From contig DYTO01000005.1 in assembly GCA_020725895.1 (NCBI GenBank), positions 1,200-42,580 on the forward strand: a stretch of DNA of 41,381 nucleotides, in the 5' to 3' direction. Position 1 is the stretch's first letter. Every line of letters begins with the position of its first letter. The notes under the pieces were generated by a model. That model searched no databases and had not been told where the DNA came from. It was given only the letters and a program-made list of their open reading frames with translations. This document shows, one piece after another, positions 2-25,660 of the stretch. Position numbers and translations under genes: made by a program. The DNA is from Candidatus Hadarchaeum sp. (lineage in GTDB: Archaea > Hadarchaeota > Hadarchaeia > Hadarchaeales > Hadarchaeaceae).

Positions 2-1864
2 TGGGGGCCGCTGGTCTTCGCCCTCTCTGTCATCCCCGTCTACATGATCGGCAAGGATCTCGGCGGCGAAGTCGGGGGCGCCTCTGCCGCGCTTTTCTTC
101 GCGACACTGGTCAGCTCGATATACTGGAACAAGACGGGGGCGTTCGACCGCGATTGCATCCAAACGCTCCTCGGGGCCTGGACATTGTTCGTCACGTTGA
201 AATTCTTCAGGGCGTCCAGGGAGGAAAAGCCGAAGCTGGCGGTCGTCTCCGCCATGGTATACGGGATTTACGGGCTGACATGGAGCGGCTCGCTTTTCAT
301 AATAATGGCGATTCTCGGTGGACTGATCCTGATCCTTCTCGCGGGTTTCGGCGGCAAATTCTTCAAGAATGTCTCCGACCCCGTCGGGGCAATCTACTCG
401 TCGATAAAAATGCACCTCACGACGGTGATCGGGGTCGTCTTGATGATGATCGTTTTCACGGCGGTCTTCTCGGTGACGACAGGACAGCAGCCCGTTTTCT
501 GGATCAACATCTCACAAACCGTGGTATCTTTCATCTTTCCTGGCAGCGGTGGTGAAGGTTTGAGCACCGGCGCGGCATCTGAGGAACGGCCGGCCGGTCC
601 CCTGGGCGACACTTTTGCAAAGTTCTATGCCGAAGGGTTGCTGACGGCGATAGTAGTTTCGCTGATGATCATCGCCCTGATCAAAATACTTTGGTCGAGA
701 AAACCGCACGAGCTTTACATCCTGTCCTGGTTCATCGTCCTGATCCTGATGGTCTGGCCCGACAAGGGGCTGGCGAGGTTCGACCGGATGTGGTGGCCCC
801 TGCTGCCGGCCATGGCAGGTGCGGGGCTGGGCACAATTTATTCTCTGTTCACCGGCCTTTCTTTCGATCCCTCGTGGGAATGGCTGAAAAAACTGCAAAA
901 CCCGTTCCTGGTCGCGATCGTGATGATATTTTTCGCCGCGCCTTTCGTGGTAAACGCGCAGAACGCCGCGGAGGGGGCCGCCCCGCCGACCGAGTGGAAT
1001 TATCGCAGAGGATATGACAATGGACTTTTAGAATCTTTCGAGTGGATGAGGACGAACACCCCTGAGGGGATAATAGTATCGATAGAATGGTCATTCGGGC
1101 ATTTGATGACGGGCGTGGCCAGGCGGCCGAGCGTTGTCGACGGTGCCGGGGGAGATATAGGAGAAGAATTGACATGGCAGACGGAAAACCGGGAATACGT
1201 GCCTCCAGACTACGTTGACTGGCAAATAGGCGAGGGTGTGGACATCGTGGGATCGGGCACGCAAAACTATCACTCGTATTCGATAAACGGCAGGCGCCCG
1301 GACGCCGATCGCCTGACTGTGACTGGCAGCGAAGAAGAGCTGAAATTTTTGCTCAATACTTATCGGGACAACTACCTGTCGCAAGTAGACTATATCATAT
1401 TCTCGAAGGATGCGCTCTACGCCAAGGATGTCCTCGGCACGTGGCAGGTGACCGAGAATCGTAGCAGCGCAAAGAGCGTTGATTCGGTCGATGGCGATTA
1501 CTTGATCGAATTCGAAAACGATAACGTTGTGCTGCTCTCATCCTTCACGGGCGCGTACATCCAGGGAAGTGGCGAAAATCTGGAAGGAGTATTAGTCGAA
1601 ATCGTGAACTATGACTATGGCATCGCATATTATCTTCCGTATTTCCGAAACGATTACCAGGCTTCGAAATATGTGTTCACGACAATGCGGATCAAGGACG
1701 GCAAACAACAAATAGCCGCGTTCCAGCTCGGAGATTCGAGGGGGAGGTCAATGACCCACCGCATTTTCCAAGAATACAAAATCCCGCCATACCTCTCCGT
1801 GGAGTACACCAGTACAAACCAGCTTATAAAAGTGGTGAGAGTCGACCACTCCTTGATCCCGTGA
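2..1864 (+). CDS. aglB: AglB/STT3-like oligosaccharyltransferase (GT-C membrane protein), 5' end truncated by the window edge
   Basis: The frame is open back to nt 2 (WGPLVFALSVIPVYMIGKDLGG...). The N-terminal half is multi-TM. The soluble C-terminal domain starts at IVSIEWSFGHLMTGVARRPSVVDG, which aligns to the STT3/AglB WWDYG block. Its tail (SEEELKFLLNTYRDNYLSQVDYIIFSKDALYAKDVLGTW) resembles the OST C-terminal domain. Confidence 0.65.
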   Translation, partial: WGPLVFALSVIPVYMIGKDLGGEVGGASAALFFATLVSSIYWNKTGAFDRDCIQTLLGAWTLFVTLKFFRASREEKPKLAVVSAMVYGIYGLTWSGSLFIIMAILGGLILILLAGFGGKFFKNVSDPVGAIYSSIKMHLTTVIGVVLMMIVFTAVFSVTTGQQPVFWINISQTVVSFIFPGSGGEGLSTGAASEERPAGPLGDTFAKFYAEGLLTAIVVSLMIIALIKILWSRKPHELYILSWFIVLILMVWPDKGLARFDRMWWPLLPAMAGAGLGTIYSLFTGLSFDPSWEWLKKLQNPFLVAIVMIFFAAPFVVNAQNAAEGAAPPTEWNYRRGYDNGLLESFEWMRTNTPEGIIVSIEWSFGHLMTGVARRPSVVDGAGGDIGEELTWQTENREYVPPDYVDWQIGEGVDIVGSGTQNYHSYSINGRRPDADRLTVTGSEEELKFLLNTYRDNYLSQVDYIIFSKDALYAKDVLGTWQVTENRSSAKSVDSVDGDYLIEFENDNVVLLSSFTGAYIQGSGENLEGVLVEIVNYDYGIAYYLPYFRNDYQASKYVFTTMRIKDGKQQIAAFQLGDSRGRSMTHRIFQEYKIPPYLSVEYTSTNQLIKVVRVDHSLIP

Positions 1865-3843: not shown

Positions 3844-4686
3844 CTAGAATGAATGGCCGAGCTTTTCAAAAGTTTCTTTCATCACGAGTGAATCGAGTTC
3901 TAGGACTGGCGACTCCGAAATTATGGTTATGTCTATTTTTTGCTTCAGGATCTCCTTTGCGAGTGGCTCGAACGGCGGCTTCCCGACCTTCATCGGTAGA
4001 TGGCGCCTCTCGTTCCCGTGGCCGGGGACCTTCGCCGGCGTCCACTCCATTCCCGCGAAGTGTGAGTGTACGTGCTTTAGGTTCAGCGGCTTGAGTTTCT
4101 CGAAAACCTCGGAATAGTCTATCTTCCCTGCCGCGCGCGCCCAGATGTGCGAGAAGTCGATGACGGGTGCGCAGCCTCGGACCTTCCTGCACAACTCGAC
4201 GAGTTCCTCGAGGTTCCCGAAAGCGCTCATCTTCCCCGTCGTCTCGAGCCCCAGCGTCACCCCCCTGATTCCCTTCGACTTCATCTTGTCCAGCATATCG
4301 TGGACGGCCGATTCGGCCCTTTCAAAAGCCTCCTCCGGCGTCTGAGCGCCGTAGAAGCCAGGGTGAAAAACAGCAACGTGCGCACCCATGTGTGAAGCGC
4401 GCTCCGCAGAGTCGAGTATCCTCTTTTTGGAGGCCTTGACCTTCGCCTTTTCAACAGAGCAGAGGTTAACGTAGTATGGGCAGTGGACTGACATGTCTAT
4501 CTTCAGCTCACGCGATAGTTCTCCTACCTCTTCTGCCATCTTGTTCCCCATCGCGACTCCGCGCACGAACTCAACTTCCATGGCGTTCAGACCGAGCTCC
4601 GAAACTCGTCTAATCCCGTCAAGCGTGCTGCCTCCCTTCGCGGAAACAGGTATCCCGGCAGGTCCAAGGTAAATCATTCTCTCCAT
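3844..4686 (-). CDS. nfo: Endonuclease IV-like AP endonuclease (xylose isomerase-like TIM barrel)
   Basis: 280 aa. The blocks SVHCPYYVNLCS, AVFHPGFYG, LGLETTGK, IDFSHIWA and HSHFAGMEW match the metal-binding blocks of the Endo IV family. Confidence 0.65.
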   Translation of the reverse strand: MERMIYLGPAGIPVSAKGGSTLDGIRRVSELGLNAMEVEFVRGVAMGNKMAEEVGELSRELKIDMSVHCPYYVNLCSVEKAKVKASKKRILDSAERASHMGAHVAVFHPGFYGAQTPEEAFERAESAVHDMLDKMKSKGIRGVTLGLETTGKMSAFGNLEELVELCRKVRGCAPVIDFSHIWARAAGKIDYSEVFEKLKPLNLKHVHSHFAGMEWTPAKVPGHGNERRHLPMKVGKPPFEPLAKEILKQKIDITIISESPVLELDSLVMKETFEKLGHSF

Positions 4687-5708: not shown

Positions 5709-6092
5709 ATGCCTGAAACAAGATTCATGAAATGCCAATATTGCGGTTACGAATGGCGACCGAGAAAAGGTGGTAGAAAATGTCCTTTTTGTTTCCGTGT
5801 TTTGGGAGAAAATCGCTCGACAAAATGGAAACTTGCCGAAAAAAAACTTGCGGATGCTCTTTCCAAACGTGGTTGGAAAATGGAAAAAATAGGTGGCCAA
5901 AAAGTAATAGATATTCTTGCCGAACGTGGCAAGAGAAAGTTGCTGCTGGATGTAAAATCAGGGGAAAGTTATCTAATTAGACGTTCACAATTAAAGGAAT
6001 TGTCCAAACACGTCAATAAAAAAACCGATGTTGGATTTGCTTGTGAGATGGATGGAAAGTTTTATCTCTTCATGCTAACGGAGGTACTATAA
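5709..6092 (+). CDS. Zinc-ribbon fused to an Hjc-like PD-(D/E)xK nuclease domain
   Basis: The N-terminus carries CQYC...CPFC (a 4-Cys ribbon). It is followed by LAEKKLADALSKRGW...VIDILAERGKRKLLLDVKSG, which matches the archaeal Holliday-junction-resolvase pattern E...(I/V)D(I/L)xA...L(I/L)(E/D)VKS. The gene sits on a clearly AT-richer islet. Confidence 0.55.
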   Translation: MPETRFMKCQYCGYEWRPRKGGRKCPFCFRVLGENRSTKWKLAEKKLADALSKRGWKMEKIGGQKVIDILAERGKRKLLLDVKSGESYLIRRSQLKELSKHVNKKTDVGFACEMDGKFYLFMLTEVL

Positions 6093-8712: not shown

Positions 8713-10146
8713 TCAATAGGTCTTCGCGACGAGAACGCTCGTCTTCGCATTCTTGGAACACACGGGGCACTTCCCCAACACTGGCTTCGCATCCTCGAAC
8801 TCCTCTCCGAGAACACTCCCACCGAGATCGTCACCCATCTTCTCCCCGCAAGTCGCAACCCCGCACCAGAGCATCCTCACAATCCCGCCGTGTTTCTCCA
8901 ACAGACCCTTCGCTTCCTCGATAGATCCCGCGTCTTTGATCGATTCCCTGAAACTCTTCCACGCCCTCTCGCGCAAATCCTTCTCGATCTCATCCAGCGC
9001 CTTCTCGACAGTCTTCGCCAGACCTTTCATCGGCACCGCCTGCTTCTTCCCGGTGTCCCTTCGCACGATCATGACCTGCTTCTTCTTCACATCCTCGGGC
9101 CCGATCTCGACCCTCAGCGGCACGCCACGCCTCTCCCAGTAGTAATACTTGCTGCCTGGCCGAATGTCCCTATCATCGAGGTGGACCTTCACGCAAGCGG
9201 CCTCGAGCTCATTCTTCACAGATTTAACAATTTCATCAATCGAAACGTCACTCTCCTTGTAAGGAATTGGGACAATGACGATCTGAATCGGCGCGACTTT
9301 CGGCGGCAGGCATAGCCCTGAGTCGTCGCCGTGCGCCATCATTATCGCCGCTATCGCCCTCTCCGAAATCCCGTAGCATGTCTGGTAAACGTGCTCGTGG
9401 CCGCCGACCTTGTTCTCGTACTTCAGGTTGTAGACTTTCGCGAAGTTCTGCCCGAGGTTGTGCACCGTGCCTATCTGAAGCGTCTTCCCGTCCGGGGCCA
9501 ACGTGTCGAAAGCTACCGAGTAGTCGGCGCCGGCGAAAGTGTCCCAGGGCGGGCGCTTCGATATCGTGTAGGGTATGCCGAGCTCGTCGAAGAACTCCTT
9601 GTACATCTTGACCGCCTCCTGCACCTGCGCCTCGGCCTCATCAGCCGTTGCGTGCGCCGTGTGCGCCTCCTTGAAAGTCGTCACCTCGCGCAGCCTGATG
9701 AGCGGCTTCGTCATCTTCGTCTCGTAGCGGAATATGTTGACGACCTGGAAGACCTTCAGCGGCAAGTCGGTGTGCGCGCGGATCCAGAGCGAGAACATCG
9801 GGTATATCGAGGTCTCTGAAGTCGGTCTCAGAGCGAGCCTGACGTCGAGCTTGTCGTGCCCGCCGTGCGTCACCCAGTATACCTGCCCCTCGAAGCCTCG
9901 GATGTGGTCCGCCTCCTTCTTGAAGAGCGTCTCCGGGATCAGAAGCGGGAATAGGACTTCCTGGTGCCCGCTCCGCTCGAGCAGGCCCATCAGAATCGAA
10001 AGCGCGGAGTTTCGCAGCTTCAGCCCGTAAGGCAGCCAGACGTACAGCCCCTTGACGGGGTAGCGGGTCTCCATTATGTCCGCTGTCCCGACGATGTCGT
10101 TGAACCACTCGCTGAAATTCTTGCTCCACTGCTCTCGTTTCACCAA
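8713..10146 (-). CDS. proS: Proline--tRNA ligase, archaeal/eukaryotic type
   Basis: 477 aa. FSEWFNDIVGTADIMETRYPVKGLYVWLPYG, FRYETKMTKPLIRLREV, the C-terminal zinc-binding CGVATCGEK...CPVC and the terminal Tyr are all present. Confidence 0.95.
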   Translation of the reverse strand: MVKREQWSKNFSEWFNDIVGTADIMETRYPVKGLYVWLPYGLKLRNSALSILMGLLERSGHQEVLFPLLIPETLFKKEADHIRGFEGQVYWVTHGGHDKLDVRLALRPTSETSIYPMFSLWIRAHTDLPLKVFQVVNIFRYETKMTKPLIRLREVTTFKEAHTAHATADEAEAQVQEAVKMYKEFFDELGIPYTISKRPPWDTFAGADYSVAFDTLAPDGKTLQIGTVHNLGQNFAKVYNLKYENKVGGHEHVYQTCYGISERAIAAIMMAHGDDSGLCLPPKVAPIQIVIVPIPYKESDVSIDEIVKSVKNELEAACVKVHLDDRDIRPGSKYYYWERRGVPLRVEIGPEDVKKKQVMIVRRDTGKKQAVPMKGLAKTVEKALDEIEKDLRERAWKSFRESIKDAGSIEEAKGLLEKHGGIVRMLWCGVATCGEKMGDDLGGSVLGEEFEDAKPVLGKCPVCSKNAKTSVLVAKTY

Positions 10147-16881: not shown

Positions 16882-17370
16882 ATGAAACATTCCGAAGTTG
16901 TGGTCGGCGGGACTTTCGACTATCTTCACGACGGCCACAGGGCTCTGCTGGCGAAGGCCTTCGAGCTGGGGGAAACTGTGATGGTGGGGGTCTGCTCAGA
17001 CGAGATGCAGGAGATTTTAAGGAAGGACTCGGCGGGGATACAGCCCCTGGCCGTCAGGATGTGGTCTGTTCTGGATTTCCTGCAAAAGAAGGGATTTCTG
17101 AGCCGCACGAAAATAATCGTCCTTTCCGACCCGTTCGGCCCGGCGGCGGAAGACCGCGAGGCCAAGGCGATAGTCGTCAGCCCGGAGACGAAGGACGGGG
17201 CAAAGCAGCTGAACTCGATCCGGGTTTCCAAAGGGCTTACGCCTCTCGAGATTGTCGAGGTTCCTTTCGTCCTCGCTGAGGATCAAAGTCCAATCGCATC
17301 CATAAGGATCAGGTACGGCGAGATGGACGAACACGGGAAAATTTCATCTAAAACAACCGCAGCCCAGTAA
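16882..17370 (+). CDS. coaD: Phosphopantetheine adenylyltransferase, archaeal type (cytidylyltransferase fold)
   Basis: VVGGTFDYLHDGHRALL is the (H/T)xGH nucleotidyltransferase motif. The product is about 160 aa, and the ATG directly follows the proA TAA. It sits next to coaBC and pantoate kinase. Confidence 0.8.
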   Translation: MKHSEVVVGGTFDYLHDGHRALLAKAFELGETVMVGVCSDEMQEILRKDSAGIQPLAVRMWSVLDFLQKKGFLSRTKIIVLSDPFGPAAEDREAKAIVVSPETKDGAKQLNSIRVSKGLTPLEIVEVPFVLAEDQSPIASIRIRYGEMDEHGKISSKTTAAQ

Positions 17371-17417
17371 ATTCCAATATCATTTAAAGAAGGCGTGGGT
17401 TTAGTTAAGGGAACGAT

Positions 17418-18635
17418 ATGCATCCTTCTAAAGACATAAAAGGCACGAAAGGCGGAGGGCTGGAAGGTCGGAAGATAGTGCTCGGCATCACCAGCAGCGT
17501 TGCGGCCGTCAAGTCGCCGGAGCTCGCGCGGGAGCTCATGCGTCACGGGGCGGATGTCCAAGTAGTGATGACTCCGAACGCGACGGATTTGATAACTCCA
17601 CAGCTAATGCACTGGGCCACGGGCAACGAAGTCGTCACGGAGCTCACGGGTAAAATAGAACATATCGATCTCGCTCAATGGGCCGATTTGGTCATCGTCG
17701 CGCCGGCTACCGCGAACACCGTCAGCAAGATATCCTGGGCGGTTGACGACACGCCCGTGACCTCCGTGGTCTCTGTGGCGATGGGGCTGCTGAAGCCTGT
17801 CGTCCTCGTCCCAGCAATGCACGCTTCGATGTATAATGACAAGCTCTTCCAGGAAAGCCTCGAAAGGTTGAGAAAAGCTGGCGTTCATTTGCTCGAGCCG
17901 ATTTTCGAGGAGGAGAAGGCGAAGTTCCCCTCTGTTGAGAATGTTGTTAACAGGGTGCTCGAAATCCTCGGCCCAAAGGACATGGTGGGGGTGAAAGTCC
18001 TGATAACGGCGGGGCCGACAATCGAGCCTATAGACCCGGTCAAGCTCATCACGAACAGGAGTTCCGGAAAGATGGGGATCGCACTTGCGAGGGCCGCCTC
18101 CCTCAGGGGCGCATCCGTGACTTTGATTTACGGGCCTGGCGACGAAATTCCGCCTTCTAATGTTGAAACTATACGGGTCCAGACCACGCGGGAGATGAAG
18201 GATGCTTTCGACAAGGAGCTTGAGAAAAAGCCGGACGTGGTTGCAGCCGCGGCGGCACCGCAGGACTTTGTCGTCGAGTTCCCGAGCAAGGAAAAACTCA
18301 GGCACGCACACGAGATCATGCTGAAGCTGAAGCCTGCGCCTAGAATCCTAGATGATATCAGAAAGCGCGCGCCGAAAACTTTCGTGATAGGGTTCAAGGC
18401 GGAGTACGGGGTGAACGACGAGCAGCTTGTGGAGGCTGCGCGCAAAAAGCTCGGCGAGCACGAGCTGGACATGGTAGTGGCCAACGATGTCTCAAGGTCT
18501 GGCGCTGGTTTTGGGACAGAGACCAACGAAGTCATAATATTCACGCCTTCGAAGAGAGAAAAGATCCGCGACACGAAGGACGGGATAGCGCGGGCGATTC
18601 TTGATTTAGCTAAAAAAGATTCAAGGGCGAAGTAA
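17418..18635 (+). CDS. coaBC: Bifunctional phosphopantothenoylcysteine decarboxylase / phosphopantothenate-cysteine ligase
   Basis: The flavoprotein N-domain shows IVLGITSSVAAVKSPELAREL and PATANTVSKI. The CoaB C-domain shows VLITAGPTIEPIDPVKLITNRSSGKMG and VANDV. Confidence 0.9.
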   Translation: MHPSKDIKGTKGGGLEGRKIVLGITSSVAAVKSPELARELMRHGADVQVVMTPNATDLITPQLMHWATGNEVVTELTGKIEHIDLAQWADLVIVAPATANTVSKISWAVDDTPVTSVVSVAMGLLKPVVLVPAMHASMYNDKLFQESLERLRKAGVHLLEPIFEEEKAKFPSVENVVNRVLEILGPKDMVGVKVLITAGPTIEPIDPVKLITNRSSGKMGIALARAASLRGASVTLIYGPGDEIPPSNVETIRVQTTREMKDAFDKELEKKPDVVAAAAAPQDFVVEFPSKEKLRHAHEIMLKLKPAPRILDDIRKRAPKTFVIGFKAEYGVNDEQLVEAARKKLGEHELDMVVANDVSRSGAGFGTETNEVIIFTPSKREKIRDTKDGIARAILDLAKKDSRAK

Positions 18636-19534
18636 TGAGAGCTGAATCTGCCTTTGTCCCTGCGCACATCTCTGGATTTTTCGAGCCATGCGACGCTGAA
18701 GACCCGCGGCGCGTAGGCTCGCGCAACTGCGGCCCCTGCATCGAGCCAGGTGTCCTGACCAAAGTCATCACAGACAAGTCAAAAAATCCCTCTTTGAAAA
18801 TAAGGATAAACGGCGCAAACGCAGAGGCAATCACCACGCGCTCTGTTGTAGAACAAGTCCTTGAGCTAACTCGCGGTCATTTTGAAATAGAAATAGACCA
18901 CATATGCCAGGTCCCGATTGGCGCCGGCTTCGGAGCAAGCGGGGCTGGCGCGCTAGGCGCTGCCCTCGCGCTTTCAAAATCTTTGGGGCTAAAAATGTCG
19001 CGGGACGAAATCCTTACGATTGCTCATGTCGCGGAAGTGACTTGCAGAACCGGGCTCGGCGACGTTGGCGCTCAAAATCTTGGCGGACTCGTGATTGGCG
19101 TCAGGCCTGGTGCACCGCCCTGGGGGAAATGGAAGAACATCAATGTGCCAGGAAACTTGAGGGTCATCTGCTGTACGCTCGGCCCCCTTTCAACGCCGAA
19201 ACTACTGAGAGAGGCCGATTTCCGGATGCGCGCGAAGAACCTTGCGATCCACGCCATGAAAAAAATCATGAGATCTCCAACCCCCTGGGACTTCATGGAA
19301 GTTTCAACCGAATTTTCTGAAAGACTCGGACTACTTGACGACGAACTTCGAACATTAATCTCCGATGCGAAAAAAGCCGGGGCGATAGGTGCGAGCCAGG
19401 TCATGCTCGGCCGCGCCGTTTTTGCCCTCGTTGAGAGAGAAAAAATGGTCAGAGTAAGGAGCGCCCTTCTAAAGTCAAGGGCAGAATCCCTGATAATATC
19501 AAAAATCGCGAGGAAAGGCGCTAAACTTTTTTGA
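18635..19534 (+). CDS. GHMP-family kinase, most likely archaeal pantoate kinase
   Basis: The N-terminus AFVPAHISGFFEP is typical of the archaeal pantoate-kinase group. The GHMP motif is PIGAGFGASGAGALGAALAL. The start overlaps the coaBC stop (TAATG). Gene context is CoA biosynthesis. Confidence 0.7.
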   Translation: MRAESAFVPAHISGFFEPCDAEDPRRVGSRNCGPCIEPGVLTKVITDKSKNPSLKIRINGANAEAITTRSVVEQVLELTRGHFEIEIDHICQVPIGAGFGASGAGALGAALALSKSLGLKMSRDEILTIAHVAEVTCRTGLGDVGAQNLGGLVIGVRPGAPPWGKWKNINVPGNLRVICCTLGPLSTPKLLREADFRMRAKNLAIHAMKKIMRSPTPWDFMEVSTEFSERLGLLDDELRTLISDAKKAGAIGASQVMLGRAVFALVEREKMVRVRSALLKSRAESLIISKIARKGAKLF

Positions 19535-20053: not shown

Positions 20054-20097
20054 CAGACTCTATTAAAAGCGCGAGAAATAAAAGAGTTTGGATTGGC

Positions 20098-20346
20098 TTG
20101 ACGGAATTCTCGCAACTGAACTGGATAATCGAAAAGGCCTCCGAACTGCTCAGCGACAAGGTGAAGGACGCCCCTTTGACGGACATGGACGTGGAGATCG
20201 CGTATGACATGTTCGCGAAGTCCAGGCTCCAGCACGTGGAGGGGGAGTTCAAAACCGACCAGGATAGGGCCCAAGCACAAGATTATATTATCATGAAACT
20301 ACAAGAGAGAGCGAAGCAACTCAATAATGAACGATGGAGGAAATGA
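20098..20346 (+). CDS. Small hypothetical, predicted all-helical protein (82 aa, TTG start)
   Basis: I recognise no domain. The composition is charged and helical. Its TGA (20344-20346) lies 1 nt before the ATG of the next gene, and its 3' end carries that gene's GGAGG. Confidence 0.4.
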   Translation: MTEFSQLNWIIEKASELLSDKVKDAPLTDMDVEIAYDMFAKSRLQHVEGEFKTDQDRAQAQDYIIMKLQERAKQLNNERWRK

Positions 20347-20347
20347 A

Positions 20348-20833
20348 ATGAGGAAGGTTGCAATACTGACCCTGGGCTTTCACCCGAGGCCGCTGGAGCA
20401 CGTGATGCATGAAAAGAAGCCTGACGTCTGTTATGTCGTCACGTCTGAAAACGGGCTCAAGCATGTCGCAGAGGAGCATGGCTACAATGAAACCAACTTG
20501 GTAGTGCTGACGGCAGCCGCAAAAAAATCAAAGTGCAAGCTGCAGATTTTCAAGTGCGATGCTTTCGACCCCGAGTCCATAGGTGACTCGATAGGAAAGG
20601 TCCTCGAACAGTTGAAACCGGACGACCAAGTGATGATCAACTACAGCGGGGGCACGCAGGCGATGAGCCTTGTTCTTGGATCGGTGGCGATAGTCCTGTC
20701 CAGGATAATGGAAATCCAGATCTTGTACTCGACGCGCTCGCCCGGCGGGAAGGAAAAACTGCTTGACCACAGCAAGAAGCTAAGCGAGCTGTTCCACAAG
20801 CTCTACGAGATAGTCCCCTCGATGCCTAGGTAA
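20348..20833 (+). CDS. Stand-alone CARF / Csa3-N-terminal-like Rossmann-type sensor domain protein (161 aa)
   Basis: MRKVAILTLGFHPRPLEHV is a beta1 followed by the TLGF loop, as in Csa3. DVCYVVTSE is beta2. QVMINYSGGTQAMSLVLGSVAIVL is the hhhxxSGGTxxMS strand-loop-helix typical of CARF ligand pockets. No effector or HTH domain follows. GGAGG at 20336-20340 lies 7 nt upstream of the ATG. Confidence 0.5.
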   Translation: MRKVAILTLGFHPRPLEHVMHEKKPDVCYVVTSENGLKHVAEEHGYNETNLVVLTAAAKKSKCKLQIFKCDAFDPESIGDSIGKVLEQLKPDDQVMINYSGGTQAMSLVLGSVAIVLSRIMEIQILYSTRSPGGKEKLLDHSKKLSELFHKLYEIVPSMPR

Positions 20834-20835
20834 AT

Positions 20836-21102
20836 TTACAACAAAGGCAGGCGCCCAACCCAAACCATGTATATTGCCAGTACAGAAAGTATTGCTACGA
20901 CTATCAGTCCTGTTCCCCATTTCCTAGCCTGGGCCTTTATGCATATGTAGCCGAAAAGCCCTGCGCCGCCTGCGATCACGAGGAGAACAAGAGTCATCAC
21001 GATCTGTCCGATGATCCTGACCAGGCCAGTCTGCGTCAGCGCGATTAGTGGCAGAATAACAAGCAACACCGCCACGATGCCTATCAGTGCCATTCCTCGC
21101 AA
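20836..21102 (-). CDS. Small 3-TM membrane protein, function unknown
   Basis: 88 aa and almost entirely hydrophobic (LIGIVAVLLVILPLIAL, IVMTLVLLVIAGGAGLFGYICI, GLIVVAILSVLAIYMVWV). Confidence 0.45.
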   Translation of the reverse strand: MRGMALIGIVAVLLVILPLIALTQTGLVRIIGQIVMTLVLLVIAGGAGLFGYICIKAQARKWGTGLIVVAILSVLAIYMVWVGRLPLL

Positions 21103-21152
21103 TTTTTCACCTATCCTTCTTATATCGTGTGCTTTTTAAAGTAAATGGTCAA

Positions 21153-22913
21153 ATGCCGAGAATTGCGGTTCTAGACAGGGATCTGTGCCAGCCAAACCTG
21201 TGCACGACGGAATGCCTGAGGTACTGCCCGGGAGTGAAGACGGGAGACGAGACGATAGTCATAGACGATAGTGGGCGCCCGCTGATCTCCGAGAGACTTT
21301 GCAGCGGCTGCGGGATATGCGTCCACAAGTGCCCTCACCATGCCATTTACATAATCAACCTGCCCCAGGAACTGGAGGGGCGATGCGTTCACAGGTACGG
21401 GCAGAACGGTTTCGCGATATACGGGTTGCCAATCGTCCGCTCGGGGAGCGTCGTCGGGCTCGTGGGGCAGAACGGCACGGGAAAGAGCACCGTCCTGAAC
21501 ATCCTCTCGAACAATATCAAGCCGAACTTGGGTGGGAAAGAAGTGGCGGCCGCCGAAACGCTGAACAAGTTCTTCAGGGGCTCCGAGCTCCAGGAGTACT
21601 TCTCTAAAATAGAAGGAAAAAAATTCGCTTACAAGCCGCAAAAGATCGAAGTCGTCGAAAGGCTGAAGGGGCGGAGCGCCGGCGACCTTCTCAGCTCGAC
21701 CGATGAGCGCAAGGTCGCAGAATCATACGTAAAAACCCTGGAATTGGGCAAAGTCCTGGAAAGGGAGGTGGGGCTGCTGAGCGGCGGCGAGCTCCAGAGG
21801 CTGGCCATAGCCGCGGCCGCCGCCAAGGATGCCGATGTCTATTTCTTCGACGAGCCAAGCTCCCACCTCGACGTCTACCAGAGGCTGAACGCTGCAAAAG
21901 TGATTCGAGGCCTTGCCGAAATCGGGAAGTCTGTGCTTCTCGTCGAGCATGACCTAGCCCTCTTGGACTACATGTGTGATTACGTCCACGTTGTTTACGG
22001 GGGGCCGTGCGCCTACGGTGTTGTCTCCTCGCCACAGGGCGTGCGCGTGGGGATCAACGTTTACCTGGACGGTTATCTCAAGGCTGAGAACGTCAGGTTC
22101 AGGGACGTCCCGATAAAGTTCGATGTCAGGCCGCCCGCGAAGGGCAGGGTTGAAGACAAAATCGGATTCTCCTATCCGGATTTTTCGAAGGACTTGGACG
22201 GCTTCCGCTTGCGGGTGGGCGCCGGAGAGGTTTACTCGGGGGAGGTCATCGGGGTGGTCGGCCCGAACGCAACTGGGAAGACGACATTCATCAGGATGCT
22301 CGCGGGAGATATCTCGCCTACCAACGGCGCGCTCGACTTCAAGCTATCGATATCATACAAGCCACAGTACCCAAAGGTGGAATTCGAAGGGACGGTGCAC
22401 GACTGGCTCCGATCGAAATTAGGGAGTTTCGACCCGGCCCTGGGGCCTGAAGTCCTGAACCCGCTTGAGGTCACACCTCTCCTGAACCGGGAGATGAAAA
22501 ACCTGAGCGGCGGCGAGCTCCAGAGGGTAGTCATTTCGGGATGTCTCGGTCGGTCGGCCGACGTATACCTGTTGGACGAGCCGAGCGCATACCTCGACGT
22601 CGAGCAGAGGCTCCAGATGTCCAAGGCCATCCGGAGGACGATAGAGAAGAGGGAGGCGGTCGCCATTGTGGTCGACCACGATGTCCTGGCCGTCGACATG
22701 ATATCCGACCGCTTGTTGGTCTTCGGCGGCGAGCCCGGCAGAAGCGGGGTCGCGAGGGGGCCGTTCAAAATGCGGGAGGGGATGAACCTCTTCCTCAAGG
22801 AGCTCGGGATAACATTCAGGCGGGACCCCCAGACGGGCAGGCCAAGGGCCAACAAGCCTGGCAGCGTCATCGACCGTGAGCAGAGGGGGCGCGGGGAATA
22901 CTTTTACATCTGA
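21153..22913 (+). CDS. abcE1: ABCE1 / RNase L inhibitor-type ribosome recycling ATPase
   Basis: MPRIAVLDRDLCQPNLCTTECLRYCPG...CSGCGICVHKCP is the N-terminal di-[4Fe-4S] domain. Two ABC cassettes follow (GQNGTGKST / LSGGELQR twice, GPNATGKTT). The start is trimmed to ATG 21153. Confidence 0.95.
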   Translation: MPRIAVLDRDLCQPNLCTTECLRYCPGVKTGDETIVIDDSGRPLISERLCSGCGICVHKCPHHAIYIINLPQELEGRCVHRYGQNGFAIYGLPIVRSGSVVGLVGQNGTGKSTVLNILSNNIKPNLGGKEVAAAETLNKFFRGSELQEYFSKIEGKKFAYKPQKIEVVERLKGRSAGDLLSSTDERKVAESYVKTLELGKVLEREVGLLSGGELQRLAIAAAAAKDADVYFFDEPSSHLDVYQRLNAAKVIRGLAEIGKSVLLVEHDLALLDYMCDYVHVVYGGPCAYGVVSSPQGVRVGINVYLDGYLKAENVRFRDVPIKFDVRPPAKGRVEDKIGFSYPDFSKDLDGFRLRVGAGEVYSGEVIGVVGPNATGKTTFIRMLAGDISPTNGALDFKLSISYKPQYPKVEFEGTVHDWLRSKLGSFDPALGPEVLNPLEVTPLLNREMKNLSGGELQRVVISGCLGRSADVYLLDEPSAYLDVEQRLQMSKAIRRTIEKREAVAIVVDHDVLAVDMISDRLLVFGGEPGRSGVARGPFKMREGMNLFLKELGITFRRDPQTGRPRANKPGSVIDREQRGRGEYFYI

Positions 22914-22934: not shown

Positions 22935-23204
22935 ATGGGAATCAAGGAAGAGATACGCTGGCTGAAGGAAAACGAGAGCGGCTGGGGAAAGACGTTCGAA
23001 ATAATCGCTGAAAATAAAAAAATGGGGATCTGGGCTCTGAAGGAAGCTTGCGGGGATGAGGACTGGTGGCCGATCAAAGCATACGTGAAACTGCTATCCG
23101 AGCACGGCCTCGTCACGAACGAAAACGGAAACATAAATCTGACGGAGCAGGGGGGCGCAGTTTTCGACATAATGAAGGCGACAGAGGACGTTAAGCAGGT
23201 CTAG
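22935..23204 (+). CDS. Small winged-helix-like protein (89 aa), function unknown
   Basis: IKAYVKLLSEHGLVTNENGNINLTEQGGAVF looks like a recognition helix plus wing. It begins 21 nt downstream of abcE1. Confidence 0.4.
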   Translation: MGIKEEIRWLKENESGWGKTFEIIAENKKMGIWALKEACGDEDWWPIKAYVKLLSEHGLVTNENGNINLTEQGGAVFDIMKATEDVKQV

Positions 23205-24817: not shown

Positions 24818-25660
24818 GTGTTCAAGGTGAAATCTCACGGCTTCGAGCTCGAGATGGAGATGGTCGACGTCAAAAAAGTCCACATCCACGAGGAGATAGT
24901 GCCGGAACTCCTCGAGGGTCTGATCAAGGACATGAAGAAGAACGGTTTCGCGCGCGACCCCGTGCTTGTGGATGCTTCAACGAATGTGGTCCTGGACGGG
25001 ATGCACCGTGTCGCCGCCCTGCGCCAGATGGGTTATGTCAGAATCCCGATATGCAAGGTGGATTACAACAGTACGAGAATCAAGCTCGGCTGCTGGTACC
25101 GCGTGATGACTGGCGGTGACCTCTCAAAGATTCCGGAAATTCTGAAATTGTTCAACTTGAAAACAGAGGAAACCTCTGTTGCTGCGGCTAAACGCGAACT
25201 GAAAAAGAGGGCTGCGACATTCGCTGTGCTGACGACTGAAAATTGTCTCCTAGTCCGGGCTGAAAAAACCGATGTGAGGGAGAGCTACACCTGGGTGAAA
25301 AGAATCGAGCGCGCCCTGAAGGACCAGAAGATAAAAACGAGTTACGCCGACGAGGAGGACGCGATGGAAAAAATATCTGAAAAGACAGTGGTCATGCTCG
25401 TGCCATGCGCGGAGAAGCGCGAGGTCATTGAAATGGCACTCTCGGGGCACGTCTTCGCCCACAAGACGACCCGCCACGTCATACCTGAAAGACCGGTGAA
25501 CGTGCGAGTACCGCTTTCCTGGCTTACGGCAAAAAGGCCATTGCGAGAAGTGAACGGGCTCCTGAACGAGAATCTCACGAAGCGCGGGTACCGGAGCGTT
25601 CCCGCCGGGCAGATGTTCGATGGGCGACGATACGAGGAGGACCTGTTGATTTTCAGGTGA
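24818..25660 (+). CDS. ParB/sulfiredoxin-fold (ParB-like nuclease domain) protein with a C-terminal domain of unknown function
   Basis: VDVKKVHIHEEIVPELLEGLIKDMKKNGFARDPVLVDASTNVVLDGMHRVAALRQMGYVRIPICKV matches the ParBc/Srx pattern (..P..V.....hhDGhHRh.Ah...G...hP). No HTH is evident. The start is GTG with GGTGA upstream, and alternative ATGs lie at 24851 and 24857. Confidence 0.6.
   Translation: MFKVKSHGFELEMEMVDVKKVHIHEEIVPELLEGLIKDMKKNGFARDPVLVDASTNVVLDGMHRVAALRQMGYVRIPICKVDYNSTRIKLGCWYRVMTGGDLSKIPEILKLFNLKTEETSVAAAKRELKKRAATFAVLTTENCLLVRAEKTDVRESYTWVKRIERALKDQKIKTSYADEEDAMEKISEKTVVMLVPCAEKREVIEMALSGHVFAHKTTRHVIPERPVNVRVPLSWLTAKRPLREVNGLLNENLTKRGYRSVPAGQMFDGRRYEEDLLIFR

Follow-up and report, generated by a model that had tools for sequence, protein, structure and literature searches.

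We report here on a pair of adjacent genes in a 41,381-nucleotide (nt) stretch of a Candidatus Hadarchaeum sp. genome (contig DYTO01000005.1, positions 1,200 to 42,580 of the forward strand; hereafter the window), where a small open reading frame (ORF) of 82 amino acids (aa), termed ORF-A, immediately precedes the gene for a 161-aa protein made of a single CARF domain. Our analyses lead us tentatively, and with a little less than even confidence, to view this protein as a dispensable, effector-less CARF receptor that is unlinked to CRISPR and belongs to a small, vertically inherited family. A first-pass annotation of the same DNA had pictured the pair as a two-gene sensor cassette, an idea that the occurrence of ORF-A in other loci corrects.

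The two ORFs are laid out exactly as that annotation had described them, with one nucleotide (A20347) between the ORF-A stop codon and the CARF start and a GGAGG string inside ORF-A, all of which can be read directly from the DNA (Table 1). An alternative in-frame ATG at 20327 would yield a 168-aa CARF protein, but all homologues start instead at the MRKVAIL/MKVAIL position. The CARF protein has 54 homologues (identity 48-76%) and ORF-A has relatives in at least 120 clusters, all named ones being Hadarchaeota. Ratios of nonsynonymous to synonymous substitution rates (dN/dS) were 0.03-0.24 across CARF and ORF-A, comparable to the adjacent nitroreductase, and 0.03-0.22 for ORF-A alone. Because homologues and low dN/dS were found for both, we consider both to be genuine genes, and conservation of the upstream ORF, on which the annotation had made its case depend, is thus in place. 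Wherever it is retained, the CARF gene is under purifying selection.

A stand-alone CARF domain

The 161-aa protein belongs to the CARF superfamily, an assignment first made from motifs and now borne out by curated profiles, predicted fold, likeness to structures in the PDB and the loop motifs themselves. The PADLOC-DB profile PDLC01794 (CARF1--CARF) matched residues 1-153 over its full length (E = 2.4e-37), and 44 more CARF-type PADLOC profiles, including Csx1/Csm6, CARF_TM, CARF_PDDEXK and Csa3, matched more weakly. Pfam matches to CARF_Card1, HFX_2341_N, Csa3_N (residues 4-125) and Cas_Csm6_CARF fell below gathering scores, with CARF families taking four of the five best places. An AlphaFold2 model that drew on 46 homologues (predicted local distance difference test score, pLDDT, 93.9; predicted template modeling score 0.88) placed strands at residues 3-9, 27-32, 64-69, 94-98, 123-130 and 136-140 with helices in between, a six-stranded Rossmann-like alpha/beta topology with a beta5-beta6 hairpin that corresponds to the CARF superfamily fold. 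When this monomer was compared with the PDB by Foldseek, the check that the first-pass annotation had proposed, 62 matches were obtained at E <= 1e-3, and all 50 of those listed were CARF domains (from Csm6, Can2, Cam1, Csa3, Card1, Cad1 and Cdn1), the best being TtCsm6 (5fsh; E = 1.6e-8, template modeling score 0.66). PDB sequence searches with the single CARF protein or the Hadarchaeota profile gave nothing useful, and a sequence match to TtCsm6 and Can2 was reached solely by the broader family profile (A3).

The 161 residues accommodate one CARF domain and a C-terminal helix (142-158 in the model), in agreement with the earlier statement that no effector or helix-turn-helix (HTH) domain is present. 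No HTH family matched the protein, and it has no C-terminal winged HTH of the Csa3 type. A HEPN domain (the RNase domain with the R-x4-6-H motif) is likewise absent from it, the PADLOC CARF_HEPN models aligning to the CARF part only (residues 1-130). The two motifs on which the original call was based, ILTLGFHPRP and INYSGGTQAMS, sit on the beta1-alpha1 and beta4-alpha4 loops of the model and are the most conserved stretches of the family.

Ligand pocket and the ring-nuclease question

Conserved residues of the family cluster on the loops after beta1, beta3, beta4 and beta5, which is the CARF ligand site. Invariant pocket residues are L9, G10, P13, C70, (D71), N98, Y99, S100, G102, T103, Y127 and S128, with L9-G10-x-x-P13 and N98-Y99-S100-G101-G102-T103 invariant or almost so in the family. 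The CARF domain of TtCsm6 offers a detailed comparison, being itself a ring nuclease that cleaves cyclic tetra-adenylate (cA4) and resembles the Crn1 ring nucleases; its motif I (G58, T59, S60) positions the 2'-OH and the scissile phosphate, and this motif and motif II (T133, G135, K137) have been equated with the ring-nuclease signature motifs (PMC10897365). In that protein the T59A/S60A double mutant abolished cleavage and K137A abolished cA4 binding, while T81 reads adenine and Y161 and N164 are required for cleavage (PMC10897365).

Mapping of these residues, by alignment of the broad family profile to TtCsm6, revealed that five positions are kept (G58 as G10, P61 as P13, G135 as G102, T136 as T103 and Y161 as Y127) and two are replaced conservatively (T81 by S33, T133 by S100), and that T59, S60, K137 and N164 are not kept, their places being taken by F11, H12, Q104 and R130. 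The replacements are themselves conserved, with consensus sequences LG[FL][HQ]P and GGTQ; at position 104, Gln is near-invariant in Hadarchaeota, and Ala, Ser, Arg or Asn stands there in distant relatives. Where Crn1-type proteins have G-[TS]-[ST] in motif I the window protein thus reads G10-F11-H12 (a segment whose alignment is weak, at 3 bits), and where they have T-x-G-x-K in motif II it reads S100-G101-G102-T103-Q104; nor is the gene encoded in or beside a type III locus at the loci examined. Judging from these residues, the protein keeps the scaffold of the pocket and lacks the cleavage dyad and the phosphate-binding lysine, and since both are replaced, a ring nuclease of the Crn1/TtCsm6 type, or binding of cA4 in the TtCsm6 manner, seems unlikely.

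Linkage to CRISPR is likewise lacking in what we surveyed. The window holds no tandem repeat array, no tRNA gene, and no cas, CBASS or cyclase gene, and the 30 ORFs scanned against Pfam match housekeeping families (aminoacyl-tRNA synthetases, coenzyme A (CoA) and NAD synthesis, RadA, phosphoglycerate mutase, acetolactate synthase and others) or, in three cases, none. Given the repeat search and these housekeeping-only matches, the initial claim of an absent CRISPR context holds for the window. Around other family members, no cas genes were present within +/-3.5 to 10 kb at about 30 related loci representing about 10 contexts. A defense survey that included 13 Hadarchaeota metagenome-assembled genomes (MAGs) reported type III CRISPR genes in four bacterial MAGs only (PMC13477220).

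These data speak to the possibility, raised in the first-pass annotation, that the protein is a ring nuclease acting in trans, or a sponge for cyclic oligoadenylate (cOA), which serves a type III system encoded at another place in the genome and disappears whenever that system does. Such a role would fit the patchy presence and repeated deletion described below, a pattern compatible with dependence on another dispensable system, and it would fit the closest structural relative being the TtCsm6 CARF, a Crn1-like cA4 ring nuclease (PMC10897365), of which Y127 (the cleavage residue Y161), S100, G102 and G10 are kept. The conserved F11/H12 and Q104 in place of T59/S60 and K137 weaken it, as do the absence of cas genes near family members, the fixed and vertically inherited position in a housekeeping block and the absence of type III genes from the 13 Hadarchaeota MAGs of one survey (PMC13477220), and we regard this explanation as unlikely.

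Family distribution and descent

When 1.84 billion representative proteins were searched in full by HMMER with the family profile, 31 clusters scored at E <= 1e-3, of which 18 reached E <= 1e-10. A scan of GTDB species-representative genomes with alignment A1 as the query found 13 loci, all 13 in Hadarchaeota, and every named or traceable source of the family is either Hadarchaeota or one of the early archaeal assemblies from single cells. Among the more distant members, at 24-45% identity, are proteins of two such assemblies from 2016 or thereabouts, GCA_001549395 and GCA_001549225, which we take to be candidate division MSBL1. Hadarchaeota homologues and distant relatives all match PDLC01794 (E 1e-16 to 1e-48). 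The distant relatives are single-domain proteins in housekeeping surroundings, with GatDE, PEPCK, Sua5, topoisomerase VI, glutamine synthetase and deoxyhypusine synthase among their neighbors.

Pairwise CARF distances follow those of the nitroreductase (Mantel r = 0.73, p = 5e-4), which argues for vertical inheritance together with the neighboring genes, unlike a mobile defense-island gene. A mobile or viral origin was rejected, as the viral contig collection contained no copy of CARF or ORF-A and there were no meaningful viral fold matches.

ORF-A with and without CARF

ORF-A is predicted to form a three-helix bundle (pLDDT 90.8; helices 2-22, 29-46 and 54-79) and has no Pfam, NCBIfam or PADLOC family, no PDB sequence match and no PDB fold match better than E = 1, consistent with its initial description as a helical protein without a recognizable domain. 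Reading it as a HEPN or HTH protein was dropped, there being no HEPN match and no family or fold match. It measures 82-87 aa in the loci seen and has no known relatives outside Hadarchaeota loci (the window and L023-L076); its annotations in the source records are inconsistent ('methanogenesis marker 7-like', 'phasin', 'AAA+ ATPase').

A search of a metagenome collection that used ORF-A only, and was therefore blind to CARF, returned 49 loci. CARF lay downstream in five of them and was missing from the same syntenic block in 39, the remaining five being cut by a contig end, which leaves 44 informative loci. In addition, three ORF-A homologues on long contigs are followed directly by the membrane-protein gene and ABCE1, leaving no space into which a CARF gene would fit. 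In a tree built from ORF-A and the nitroreductase, the loci that have CARF lie dispersed among those that lack it, and seven CARF-negative loci carry deletion scars of two kinds at the expected gene site. Four of these (L036, L037, L041 and L046) retain the first ~20 CARF codons after the ORF-A stop (VNIAILTLGFHP-VEHIL...), and the other three (L043, L047 and L052) retain a stub in which N- and C-terminal CARF pieces are fused (MKVAIF/DHT...RRLYEIVP). These remnants show the absence of CARF to be due to loss, and the CARF gene is evidently dispensable and has been lost repeatedly.

ORF-A, for its part, shows little sign of CARF having come or gone. Its rate relative to that of the nitroreductase was similar with and without CARF (slope 1.07 vs 1.11), the same residues are invariant, and no alignment column discriminates CARF-positive from CARF-negative loci. 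The sole systematic difference, a set of substitutions in helix 3, marks one deep clade that lacks CARF throughout, and ORF-A is unchanged in lineages with fresh CARF deletion scars. Near distant CARF relatives, no ORF-A was found. With ORF-A standing alone in 39 of the 44 informative loci, distant CARFs doing without it and conservation equal in both situations, the notion of a dedicated partner fails, and by these comparisons ORF-A is not one. As for the expectation that the pair would be conserved elsewhere, this survived in part, in that the junction is retained where CARF is present (next section), whereas ORF-A usually occurs without CARF.

Coupling and putative promoters

ORF-A is always divergent from the nitroreductase gene in the loci seen, and the intergenic region between them (43-55 nt; in the window, the two starts share a 44-nt control region) contains two conserved TATA-like boxes, each ~30 nt from one start codon. 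An A/T-rich box occupied an equal relative position in all 17 of the nitroreductase/ORF-A intergenic regions compared. The conserved boxes thus provide a putative promoter for ORF-A in every lineage, and none for CARF; an ORF-A/CARF transcript would have a short leader or none.

The tight coupling that had been noted in the window recurs, as 17 of 18 non-redundant CARF loci have -4 to +9 nt between ORF-A stop and CARF start, often with an ATGA overlap, and GGAG/GGAGG-like strings occur at most of the junctions. A telling variation is seen in L001-L003, where the pair has been relocated out of the conserved block. Here ORF-A is reduced to an in-frame remnant of 41 codons (9872-9994) comprising helix 1 and the last ten residues (of the ORF-A codons, 1-33 and the last 10 survive), which ends 6 nt before the CARF ATG, and this arrangement is found on 14 contigs from several samples. 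The simplest reading is that CARF needs ORF-A in cis, for transcription and the initiation of translation, and does not need the ORF-A protein. Because the promoter boxes are kept everywhere and the L001-L003 remnant still stands ahead of CARF, we propose that ORF-A would act mainly as an expression platform (promoter, start and coupling signal) that has an independent function of its own, and would not be the regulated output.

The coupling has also to be considered under a two-protein sensor, in which ligand-bound CARF controls ORF-A by direct contact. Equimolar co-production of the two proteins, which conserved translational coupling favors, would suit such a sensor, and so would the observation that window-type CARF is always preceded by at least a piece of ORF-A, the differently substituted helix 3 of the deep CARF-less clade, and the precedent of a CARF that binds partners (RtcR, whose CARF binds RtcA and RtcB; PMC9650030). 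Against this, ORF-A is mostly found alone, keeps its invariant residues and relative rate whether or not CARF is there, does not change after fresh CARF deletion and is missing beside distant CARF relatives, and in L001-L003 CARF persists behind an ORF-A from which helix 2 and the greater part of helix 3 are gone. We therefore find it improbable that the small protein is regulated by the CARF, as had been suggested at first.

Table 1. Features of the ORF-A/CARF locus and its surroundings, in window coordinates.
Feature	Position	Strand	Remarks
ORF without Pfam family	44-1864		606 aa; no family at E <= 1e-5
ORF without Pfam family	5709-6092		127 aa; no family at E <= 1e-5
Three CoA-pathway genes	16882-19534		cytidylyltransferase-like (probably PPAT), CoaBC, archaeal pantoate kinase
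TATA-like box TATTAAAA	20061-20068	+	~33 nt 5' of ORF-A start; putative ORF-A/CARF promoter
Second TATA-like box AAATAAAAG (+ strand letters)	20077-20085	-	~28 nt 5' of divergent nitroreductase start (20053); putative nitroreductase promoter
ORF-A	20098-20346	+	82 aa; TTG start, TGA stop 20344-20346
GGAGG, Shine-Dalgarno-like	20336-20340	+	in last ORF-A codons, 7 nt 5' of CARF ATG
CARF ORF	20348-20833	+	161 aa; ATG 20348; stand-alone CARF-domain protein
Motif I loop after beta1, L9-G10-F11-H12-P13	20372-20386	+	G10 = TtCsm6 G58; F11-H12 replace catalytic T59-S60
Segment with local match to 7ucw	20492-20656		CARF residues 49-103
C70-D71 after beta3	20555-20560	+	invariant in all family members, the distant ones too
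Motif II loop after beta4, N98-Y99-S100-G101-G102-T103-Q104	20639-20659	+	S100/G102 = TtCsm6 T133/G135; Q104 replaces K137
ABCE1	21087-22913		
89-aa gene	22935-23204		no Pfam match in window; orthologues carry HTH_45
ORF without Pfam family	24818-25660		280 aa; no family at E <= 1e-5; conserved in block, adjoins RadA

Genomic neighborhood

The window and ten other Hadarchaeota species share one gene order, namely CoaBC, pantoate kinase, nitroreductase (-), ORF-A, CARF, a small membrane protein (-), ABCE1, an 89-aa winged-helix protein, LSM (-) and RadA. The flanking genes had been correctly named as a nitroreductase and ABCE1, the latter being recognizable by its translation and by the Pfam matches of its orthologues. 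Most relatives share with the window an ABCE1 gene in the block, and it is absent from several CARF-positive lineages (L004, L007, L008, L028, L034 and L076 compared), in which the 89-aa winged-helix gene directly follows the membrane-protein gene. The three CoA-pathway genes listed in Table 1 lie within the conserved block, directly upstream of the ORF-A/CARF pair. CoA and dephospho-CoA are adenine nucleotides. In unrelated contexts, tRNA or translation genes often stand beside family members, including Sua5 (29 nt downstream), ELP3 (twice), GatDE, deoxyhypusine synthase, ABCE1 and LSM (L020 8515-9570 and 9687-11127; L021 4627-7851 and 10955-12562; L019 8065-9174; ABCE1 in the window), neighbors that may be a matter of chance in gene-dense archaeal genomes.

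This neighborhood is relevant to a further alternative, that of an exapted Rossmann-like protein which recognizes CoA, NAD, ADP-ribose or a similar adenine cofactor or metabolite, or else a 2',3'-cyclic phosphate RNA end, and is linked to the nearby CoA-synthesis or translation genes. The broad family profile gave a local match to a short-chain dehydrogenase/reductase (SDR), the 2,4-dienoyl-CoA reductase 7ucw (E = 4.5e-4), over 'CDvxDp...viiNxaaG', so that C70-D71 and N98-x-x-G101 fall on the beta3-Asp and beta4-NNAG motifs of the nucleotide side of SDRs. The CoA-pathway genes immediately upstream in the conserved block and the tRNA and translation neighbors in several unrelated contexts would agree with this alternative, and RtcR provides a non-CRISPR CARF that senses damaged tRNA (PMC7790460). 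Yet the global fold search recovered CARFs and no SDRs among the 50 Foldseek matches listed, no Gly-rich dinucleotide loop follows beta1, and the neighbor associations are inconsistent across contexts and may be chance, such that we see little probability in an exaptation of this kind.

Several other observations were made at these loci. Next to CARF in two different settings, L001 (10571-11197, +) and L018 (544-1173, -), lies a protein of ~209 aa whose N-terminal part matches an HTH below threshold (Pfam HTH_36 / HTH_Crp_2, E ~3e-4 to 6e-4); these proteins are 69% identical to each other, vs 38% for the adjacent CARFs, and could be either a Csa3-like output with a gene of its own or what is left of a gene replacement. 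In L062, a 161-aa ORF (4091-4576) resembling the C-terminal part of a TnpB/OrfB-type transposon protein lies between the membrane-protein gene and ABCE1. Together with unrelated insertions 3' of ORF-A in several loci, it indicates that this spot tolerates rearrangement.

Proposed function

In the reading that we tentatively prefer, that of a dispensable and effector-less receptor, the CARF protein would be made from the ORF-A promoter through translational coupling to the ORF-A stop codon, would form the usual CARF homodimer and would bind a nucleotide-type small ligand at the dimer interface, in the conserved pocket. As an effector domain, the Thr/Ser dyad and the cA4-binding lysine are all missing, its action would probably consist in ligand binding or sequestration, or in contact with another protein that depends on the ligand, and not in cA4 cleavage. 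Several points weigh against this reading. Repeated loss is equally expected of a defense accessory gene. Other CARFs bind cOA by different residues, without the TtCsm6-type lysine, and cOA may thus be bound here as well. The motif-I alignment to TtCsm6 is weak alone (3 bits) and leans on the xxLGxxP pattern and the whole-domain structural match. The functional steps, that is ligand, dimer and partner, are all inferred, and the indication that type III genes may be lacking beyond the loci comes indirectly, from the 13-MAG survey, which is suggestive and not decisive (PMC13477220).

A more specific proposal makes the CARF a receptor for a nucleotide signal in Hadarchaeota that is independent of CRISPR and is relayed by ligand-dependent contact with ORF-A or with another housekeeping protein. 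Candidates for the signal would be an adenine cofactor, a cyclic oligonucleotide made by the cell or an RNA end with a cyclic phosphate. Of the readings considered here we give this one the least credence, and the effector-less, CRISPR-unlinked receptor remains the one that we tentatively favor. Should the ligand be other than CRISPR-made cOA, the protein would be a clean, minimal CARF outside antiviral defense in archaea, and a single-domain protein of 161 aa is in any case an easy target for ligand screening and crystallography.

Comparison with known systems

The locus had initially been put forward as a candidate for something new. A full-length PADLOC profile already exists, so the family is not new as such. 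PDLC01794 has the same full-length architecture, one CARF domain only, with no structural difference from the window protein, and the profile itself carries no functional description; going by its name, we take it to be clade CARF1 of the CARF census of Makarova et al. 2020. CARF-only proteins are moreover a recognized category, as 1,844 of the 6,665 CARF proteins of the 2020 census had no other annotated domain (summarized in PMC11754643). Our contribution is the natural history, namely the restriction to one phylum, a constant place among housekeeping genes, translational coupling to a small conserved gene that is unrelated, recurring deletion and the loss of ring-nuclease residues. Published descriptions of the ORF-A coupling, of the constant genomic place or of the recurring deletions were not found; neither this lineage nor CARF1 is mentioned in the 2025 CRISPR classification or its supplements, and a literature search for CARF or Cas10 in Hadesarchaea returned nothing relevant.

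Compared with the TtCsm6 CARF (5fsh, 8jbb) and Crn1 (Sso2081, Sis0455), the window protein shares the scaffold positions G10, P13, S33, S100, G102, T103 and Y127, and it departs from TtCsm6 in having no HEPN or helical effector domain, in F11/H12, Q104 and R130, and in not lying in a type III locus. Csm6/Csx1 effectors more generally are CARF domains fused to a HEPN RNase, whereas neither the window protein nor ORF-A has a HEPN match. Csa3 (2wte) matches the fold of the CARF domain (E = 2.2e-6) and continues into a C-terminal winged HTH, whereas the window protein ends after one helix.

For a CARF in a housekeeping role, the closest precedent is RtcR, whose CARF operates outside CRISPR immunity and is reported to respond to tRNA fragments (PMC7790460) and to bind RtcA and RtcB (PMC9650030). 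If the more specific proposal of a CRISPR-independent nucleotide signal is true, the window protein would be an archaeal, effector-less counterpart of such 'domesticated' CARF signaling. The comparison is made at the level of the superfamily; RtcR is a bacterial, multi-domain sigma-54 activator that regulates an RNA-repair operon, whereas the window protein is single-domain and archaeal.

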